A stretch of DNA of 64,000 nucleotides, from assembly GCF_056712565.1 (NCBI RefSeq), contig NZ_CM160072.1; one strand, 5' to 3'. The notes under the pieces were generated by a model. The model saw only the letters and a program-made list of their open reading frames with translations, searched no databases and was not told where the DNA came from. A program made the translations under genes and the position numbers. The first letter of the stretch is position 1. Each line of letters opens with the position of its first letter. Positions 12,605 through 13,768 of this stretch are shown here, piece by piece.

Positions 12605-13768
12605 ATGCCTGAATCGTTGATGGTAATACGTTCTTTCTCGACGCTGCGTAAGCATTGGGAATGGATGACGTTCTCCGCAGATAGCGTATCTTCGGTACAT
12701 ACGCTCACAGACGATCTTCCGCTGGAGTCGCTGGCCGATCAGCCCGGTGCCGGAAATGTTCACCTTTTGATCCCACCTGAGGGTCTTTTATATCGTTCCC
12801 TCACGCTGCCCAACGCCAAATACAAACTCACCGCGCAAACATTACAGTGGTTGGCGGAGGAGACATTACCCGACGCCAGCCAAAATTGGCACTGGATGGT
12901 TGTCGATAAACAAAACGAAAGTGTCGAGGTGATAGGCATTCAGTCGGAGAAACTCAGTCGTTATCTTGAGCGTTTACATACTGCCGGACTCAACGTGACG
13001 CGGGTTTTGCCAGATGGCTGCTATCTTCCCTGGGAAGTAGATAGCTGGACTCTGGTTAACCAGCAAACAAGCTGGCTTATTCGCAGTGCCGCACATGCCT
13101 TCAACGAACTGGATGAACACTGGTTACAGCATCTTGCTAACCAGTTTCCGCCAGAGAATATGCGTTGTTATGGTGTAGCGCCTCACGGCGTTGCAGCGGC
13201 CAATCCACTTATCCAGCATCCTGAAATACCATCACTGAGTTTGTATTCTGCCGATATTGCATTCCAGCGCTATGACATGCTGCATGGTGTTTTTCGTAAA
13301 CAGAAAACTGTAAGCAAATCGGGAAAATGGCTCGCCCGCCTGGCAGTAAGCTGTCTCGTTCTCGCCATTCTTTCTTTTGTTGGCAGCCGGGGCATCGCGT
13401 TCTGGCAAACGCTTAAGATTGAAGATCAACTTTAGCAACAACAGCAAGAAACCTGGCAACGTTATTTCCCGCAGATCAAACACACCCACAACTTTCGTTT
13501 TTACTTTAAGCAGCAACTCGCTCAGCAATATCCTGAAGCTGTACCGTTGCTCTATCATTTACAAACACTTCTGCTTGAACACCCTGAACTGCAGTTAATG
13601 GAGGCGAACTATAGCCAGAGGCAAAAGTCGCTGACCTTAAAAATGAGTGCTAAGAGTGAAGCCAATATCGATCGTTTCTGTGAGTTAACACAGTCCTGGC
13701 TTCCGATGGAAAAAACAGAAAAAGATCCGGTCAGTGGTGTATGGACAGTAAGGAACTCAGGGAAATGA
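12605..13768 (+). pseudogene. gspL: Type II secretion protein GspL, interrupted by in-frame TAG at 13433-13435
   Basis: ORFs 12602-13435 and 13547-13768 share a frame; translation reads ...KIEDQL*QQQQETWQRYFPQ...; total span matches full-length GspL (~387 codons). Confidence 0.8.

Follow-up and report, generated by a model that had tools for sequence, protein, structure and literature searches.

A premature amber codon in gspL as a second lesion in the type II secretion operon of an Escherichia coli B2/ST95-type sublineage

Our results indicate that gspL has very probably become a pseudogene in a B2/ST95-type sublineage of Escherichia coli, through a C>T change that turned the CAG codon of Gln277 into TAG in an operon whose gspE had been cut earlier, with this second hit most likely a matter of neutral decay. 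The stop in gspL is ordinary gene decay, a kind of event that is already known, and not the mark of an unusual genetic code. The window, by which we mean the whole 64-kb stretch of DNA that was analysed, is E. coli chromosome with the order rplW-rpsJ, gspAB, gspC-O, bfr, chiA, tufA and hofQ. It runs co-linear with the phylogroup B2/ST95-type ZJ3920, S88 and ATCC 11775 and is almost identical to them in sequence. Judged by the co-linear annotated operons, gspL takes its usual place between gspK and gspM in gspC-O, and across gspC-O the window differs from S88 at positions 7413 and 13433 only, which are the bases that create the stops in gspE and gspL (Table 1).

A stepwise course of events can be proposed. 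The cut in gspE at codon 137 (S137*) would have left the secretion machine without its ATPase and therefore dead. The C>T change at Gln277 of gspL would then have arisen in a sub-clone of these gspE-amber E. coli. The truncated GspL retains the cytoplasmic domain on which the GspE ATPase docks, together with the membrane anchor, and has lost a periplasmic ferredoxin-like domain of about 110 residues, which serves GspL for pairing with itself and with GspM. As the machine was already dead, the second hit would most likely have been neutral, in a dispensable locus that the species often loses.

Table 1. Positions, in the window, of the features discussed in the text
Feature	Position	Strand	Remarks
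gspA synonymous C22C (TGC>TGT)	3998	-	sublineage marker SNP; differs from ATCC 11775, S88 and ZJ3920
gspC-gspO operon (type II secretion, near chiA)	4243..14903	+	gspE and gspL interrupted, other ten genes intact
Older gspE amber stop S137* (TCG>TAG)	7412..7414 (gspE 7004-8485)	+	C>A transversion at 7413
gspL 5' part, codons 1-276	12605..13432	+	T2SSL domain and single transmembrane helix
Premature amber stop Q277*	13433..13435	+	CAG>TAG, C>T transition at 13433
gspL 3' remnant, codons 278-387 and natural TGA	13436..13768	+	GspL_C domain, untranslated from gspL start
gspM	13765..14226	+	ATG overlaps natural gspL stop (ATGA)
chiA, intact, 900 aa	15843..18545	-	from the ORF list and the annotation of relatives; identical to S88

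The gspL stop, its ancestral codon and the truncated protein

A preliminary description of this DNA had placed an in-frame TAG at 13433-13435, inside gspL, and it was found there, on the plus strand and within gspL at 12605-13768, when the sequence was read again. The two open reading frames that the description had joined, 12602-13435 and 13547-13768, do share one frame and are both pieces of a single gspL of 387 codons. Translated in that frame from 12602 to 13771, the DNA gives ...KIEDQL, the stop and then QQQQETWQRYFPQIKHTH..., and the next stop is the natural TGA at 13766-13768. That the combined span is that of a full-length GspL was borne out by RefSeq, in which the orthologous gspL of 1164 nt is one gene in ATCC 11775, ZJ3920 and S88; its start in these annotated relatives corresponds to the ATG at 12605.

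An ungapped base-by-base comparison with ATCC 11775, ZJ3920 and S88 revealed T versus C at 13433 as the sole difference in gspL, at a DNA identity of 99.9%. All three close relatives that were aligned have C at this position and the ancestral codon is thus CAG (Gln277), the first of five consecutive Gln codons; a CAG codon in a poly-Q run had been suggested as the ancestor, and the orthologues support it. The presence of gspL was counted over 5426 complete E. coli genomes. A single full-length match was present in 3131 of them, and the alternative that the orthologues might be two separate genes was thereby tested and found not to hold. A query of 63 nt centred on the stop had no exact match among the 3118 complete genomes that carry the region, the best hits having one mismatch, and it follows that an intact gspL is the norm. 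With orthologues that are intact and one base apart at the stop, the gspL of the window is a nonsense pseudogene.

The DNA of the window is a gspL orthologue; its product is not a complete GspL. In the truncated product, Pfam finds PF05134 (T2SSL) at residues 6-233 (E = 7e-81). PF12693 (GspL_C) occupies residues 240-384 of full-length GspL, of which the truncated product holds only the membrane-helix portion, scoring 19.2 bits against a Pfam cut-off of 29.6, while the 110 codons 3' of the TAG score E = 1.1e-30 for PF12693 by themselves. The hydropathy maximum places the transmembrane helix at about residues 242-264, and translation ends 12 residues past it. The helix and GspL_C are therefore no longer in the same polypeptide, as the TAG at codon 277 parts them. 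Solved structures of homologues are available for the cytoplasmic domain, and the periplasmic domain of GspL is described as an interaction domain (PMC3815138). Since this domain is gone and the partner GspE is itself truncated, the function of GspL is probably lost in the window strain.

As the premature stop falls 330 nt short of gspM, translational coupling between gspL and gspM has probably been lost as well; polarity on gspM and gspO is conceivable. Rho-dependent polarity was considered and dropped, given that the untranslated 329 nt before gspM are only mildly richer in C than in G.

Occurrence of the two stops and the order of events

An exact-protein index contained the truncated GspL of 276 aa on 23 independently assembled Logan/ENA contigs. 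Five of these were compared with the window and proved 100% identical to it across 6.0-16.5 kb, including the T at 13433. As separate runs and assemblies gave the truncated product on 23 contigs, the TAG is a true lesion and no assembly artefact, and the identity of independent contigs indicates that the allele is carried by a circulating lineage. The synonymous gspA change at 3998 is likewise present on gspL-amber contigs, including that of SRR22784710. This run, from the only carrier that could be traced through papers via sample accessions, holds the Illumina reads of isolate E11FP_1, which came from the environment of a broiler barn in Saskatchewan (PMC10190287). In the published table E11FP_1 has a genome of 4.85 Mb and is assigned to phylogroup 'Cryptic' (PMC10190287), a typing at odds with its own 11 kb of gsp sequence, which is that of the window and near-identical to the B2/ST95-type.

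No match to an exact 41-nt pattern spanning the TAG was obtained in JGI metagenome contigs. The protein sets of NCBI lack the allele, presumably since pseudogenes are left untranslated by PGAP. Of the results of a literature search on gspE pseudogenes and ST95, the one followed up, PMC4232414, does not describe the gspE or gspL amber alleles and is silent on gsp and on type II secretion. A GspL of 280 aa from the same protein cluster (P0004) resembled another nonsense allele of the poly-Q run but was rejected, as every copy read extends to its contig end and is a partial gene left by an assembly break.

The gspE amber is far more widespread. Exactly the same stop is common to 18 complete ST95-type genomes, including APEC O1, ZJ3920, ExPEC XM, PU-1 and SF-468, whose hosts are human, chicken, turkey, duck, pig and dog, and the resulting GspE fragment of 136 aa is on 727 public contigs; for the gspL amber, the corresponding counts are 0 complete genomes and 23 contigs. 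In these relatives PGAP labels gspE as a pseudogene with an 'internal stop'. From the difference in distribution it follows that the gspE stop predates that in gspL, which was thus the second hit in an operon already without its ATPase. All five gspL-amber contigs that were read also have the gspE amber (A at 7413). The gspL amber is therefore nested inside the gspE-amber clade, with gspE cut first and gspL later, in a sub-clone. The preliminary description had taken the two UAG codons as independent, and they are indeed separate events, unlike in age and in substitution (C>A in a Ser codon as against C>T in a Gln codon).

Two of the gspE-amber genomes, XM and PU-1, share an in-frame duplication of 18 bp in gspI (137 versus 131 aa, corresponding to window position 10846) and the change S91G in GspO (window position 14496), which are further protein-altering changes in a dead operon. 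The gspA and gspK pseudogenes annotated in APEC O1 (NC_008563.1) were considered as additional decay and rejected, since this record is garbled in places and contains stretches of N. Its poor parts correspond to about 2970-3800 and 11870-12010 of the window, and the genes annotated there as 'frameshifted' or 'partial' look like artefacts of quality.

Neutral decay and the other explanations

In K-12, the chitinase/lysozyme ChiA is exported by the chromosomal type II secretion system; in the window chiA is intact. According to Francetic 2000, as cited in PMC2649431, the K-12 system is silent under standard conditions and the chitinase is secreted only without H-NS. A match to gspL is absent from 2276 of the 5426 complete E. 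coli genomes (about 42%). The locus has also been hit by insertion elements: in FACU 2024 (NZ_CP147009.1) IS1A is inserted within gspL, where the window has a point nonsense change instead, and in CUPF09 (NZ_CP182142.1) an IS1-linked deletion has left IS1A in place of the genes from gspB onward, up to and including most of gspL, and chiA is frameshifted. What these two strains and the genomes devoid of gspL share with the window is the removal of GspL function at a locus that E. coli can do without. The gsp locus is thus dispensable, and has been repeatedly lost or disrupted across the species.

The idea that the TAG arose only as an error, in the sequencing or assembly of the window's source, can be practically dismissed. 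The T allele is in no complete RefSeq genome and the small argD and php indels of the window (see below) were not found elsewhere, but the truncated product is on 23 contigs of separate origin, and those that were read have the bases of the window at 13433 and also at 3998, the linked marker. Hardly more probable is a functionally split gspL, or a truncated GspL that keeps a role, for instance in anchoring or regulating an ATPase, or with the C-terminal piece made separately. The cytoplasmic domain and the membrane helix are complete in the truncated protein and an intact GspL_C domain is still encoded 3' of the stop. However, gspL is a single full-length match in 3131 genomes and one gene of 387 codons in the annotated close relatives. 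No in-frame start codon occurs for 37 codons after the TAG, the first being the TTG at 13547, which has no Shine-Dalgarno-like sequence upstream, and hydropathy gave no signal peptide, export signal or membrane segment that could take the C-terminal fragment to the periplasm. With so late a TTG, and neither a ribosome-binding site nor an export signal, a separate useful C-terminal piece is implausible. Moreover, the cytoplasmic partner that a truncated GspL could anchor, GspE, ends at residue 136.

The preliminary description had offered two readings, relaxed selection and read-through of UAG. Relaxed selection is favoured by the nested ambers, the loss of the locus in other genomes and the IS1 insertions; read-through gained no positive evidence, and from the window it is unsupported rather than disproved. 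It would require that the strain reads UAG by an amber-suppressor tRNA or by a weakened or leaky RF1, so that GspE and GspL are made at full length, which we regard as very unlikely; if true, an ST95-type sublineage with natural suppression or a leaky RF1 would be a rare instance of UAG suppression in an E. coli clone from the wild. Its known counterpart is amber suppression in laboratory strains (supE44 in glnV, supF in tyrT). The supE tRNA, a tRNA-Gln(CUA), would read the gspL TAG as the original Gln and restore exactly the wild-type Gln277, a perfect repair given the ancestral codon. The base that follows the stop is C in gspL and A in gspE, and both are weaker contexts for termination in E. 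coli. TAG is the premature stop in both genes, but 38-44% of the single-base paths to a stop in the operon give TAG, and the chance that two of two nonsense mutations do so is P = 0.14-0.19, so this is not remarkable; nor do the ambers agree in age or in type of substitution. The window, 64 kb long, contains no tRNA gene, and the tRNA set of the strain and prfA (RF1) lie outside it. The complete genome closest to the window is that of ZJ3920, which also carries the gspE amber, and its glnV and glnX have wild-type CUG anticodons; neither this relative nor the window yielded a suppressor. Among 5425 complete E. coli genomes not one has a supF-type tRNA-Tyr allele, and a supE-type allele is in 155, the 60 listed being laboratory strains or of K-12-like genome size. 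The natural stops of the 33 genes in the window (TAA 22, TGA 10, TAG 1) are normal for E. coli. The disruptions of kefB, argD and php in the window are not amber and are beyond rescue by a suppressor. The in-frame stop is not conserved in the manner of programmed recoding, as no orthologue in the 3118 complete genomes has the gspL TAG and it is confined to one sublineage. A different possibility is that inactivation of gsp was positively selected, either for loss of the system or because, with GspE gone, incomplete assemblies that are costly or harmful were avoided. Inactivation could in that case have been favoured rather than merely tolerated. Random substitutions in gspC-O create a stop in 3.8% of cases, and the two SNPs by which the operon departs from an S88-like ancestor both do so, a result poorly predicted by pure neutrality (nominal P of about 0.0014); this excess is weakened by the counts, which are two, and confounded by the flagging of the window on account of these very stops. 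Both alleles have spread, to 727 (gspE) and 23 (gspL) contigs, and other genomes have lost the locus independently through IS1; the spread could, however, be hitch-hiking in a successful clone. Further, the added benefit of losing gspL after the death of gspE is not obvious, and no other part of the operon is affected. Taken together, positive selection seems an unlikely cause, and neutral decay after the loss of gspE remains the preferred explanation.

Annotation, lineage markers and other changes in the window

The consequences concern annotation, and matter little beyond it. The gspL of the window shares with the annotated GspL of ATCC 11775, S88 and ZJ3920 its gene identity and the gspK-gspL-gspM synteny, and the two Pfam domains can still be recognised at the DNA level; the difference is the stop at codon 277, by which the domains no longer stand in one polypeptide. 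The closest parallel is the 'internal stop' pseudogene gspE of APEC O1 and ZJ3920, in the same operon, also due to a single-base amber, and on the same chromosome in every carrier contig read, in comparison with which the gspL lesion is younger and rarer. The interval 12605-13768 should be labelled as a pseudogene with an internal stop, in the same manner as gspE. Going by the genotype, strains of the sublineage may be assumed to be unable to secrete through the chromosomal type II system. The two nested stops and the gspA marker at 3998 are handy markers for this ST95-type sub-clone, which has been seen in poultry-barn and metagenome samples. The gsp operon is a small, clean example of stepwise decay, in which one essential component is lost and more hits then accumulate.

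Several other changes in the window are private in comparison with ZJ3920. The gene kefB (27493-29226, minus strand) has an in-frame deletion of 72 bp (24 codons) at 28730-28737, flanked by direct repeats of 8 bp, AACGCCAG, in the membrane domain. The deleted KefB of 577 aa is on one other contig, with a DNA identity of only 99.78%, which points to another lineage and makes the deletion look recurrent. In argD (37579-38798, minus strand), a deletion of 1 bp at about 37934 shifts the frame near codon 289 of 406 and leaves an open reading frame of 293 aa; the truncated ArgD of 293 aa is not on record elsewhere in public assemblies. In php (51122-51998, minus strand), which encodes a phosphotriesterase-related protein, a deletion of 2 bp at about 51923 shifts the frame near codon 25. 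The three indels are in none of the top-ranked complete-genome hits listed, all of which span the undeleted length. The lesions in kefB, argD and php may be recent real mutations or errors in the source assembly. Finally, yhfS (minus strand) has at 48634 the missense change A266V (GCG>GTG) relative to ZJ3920.
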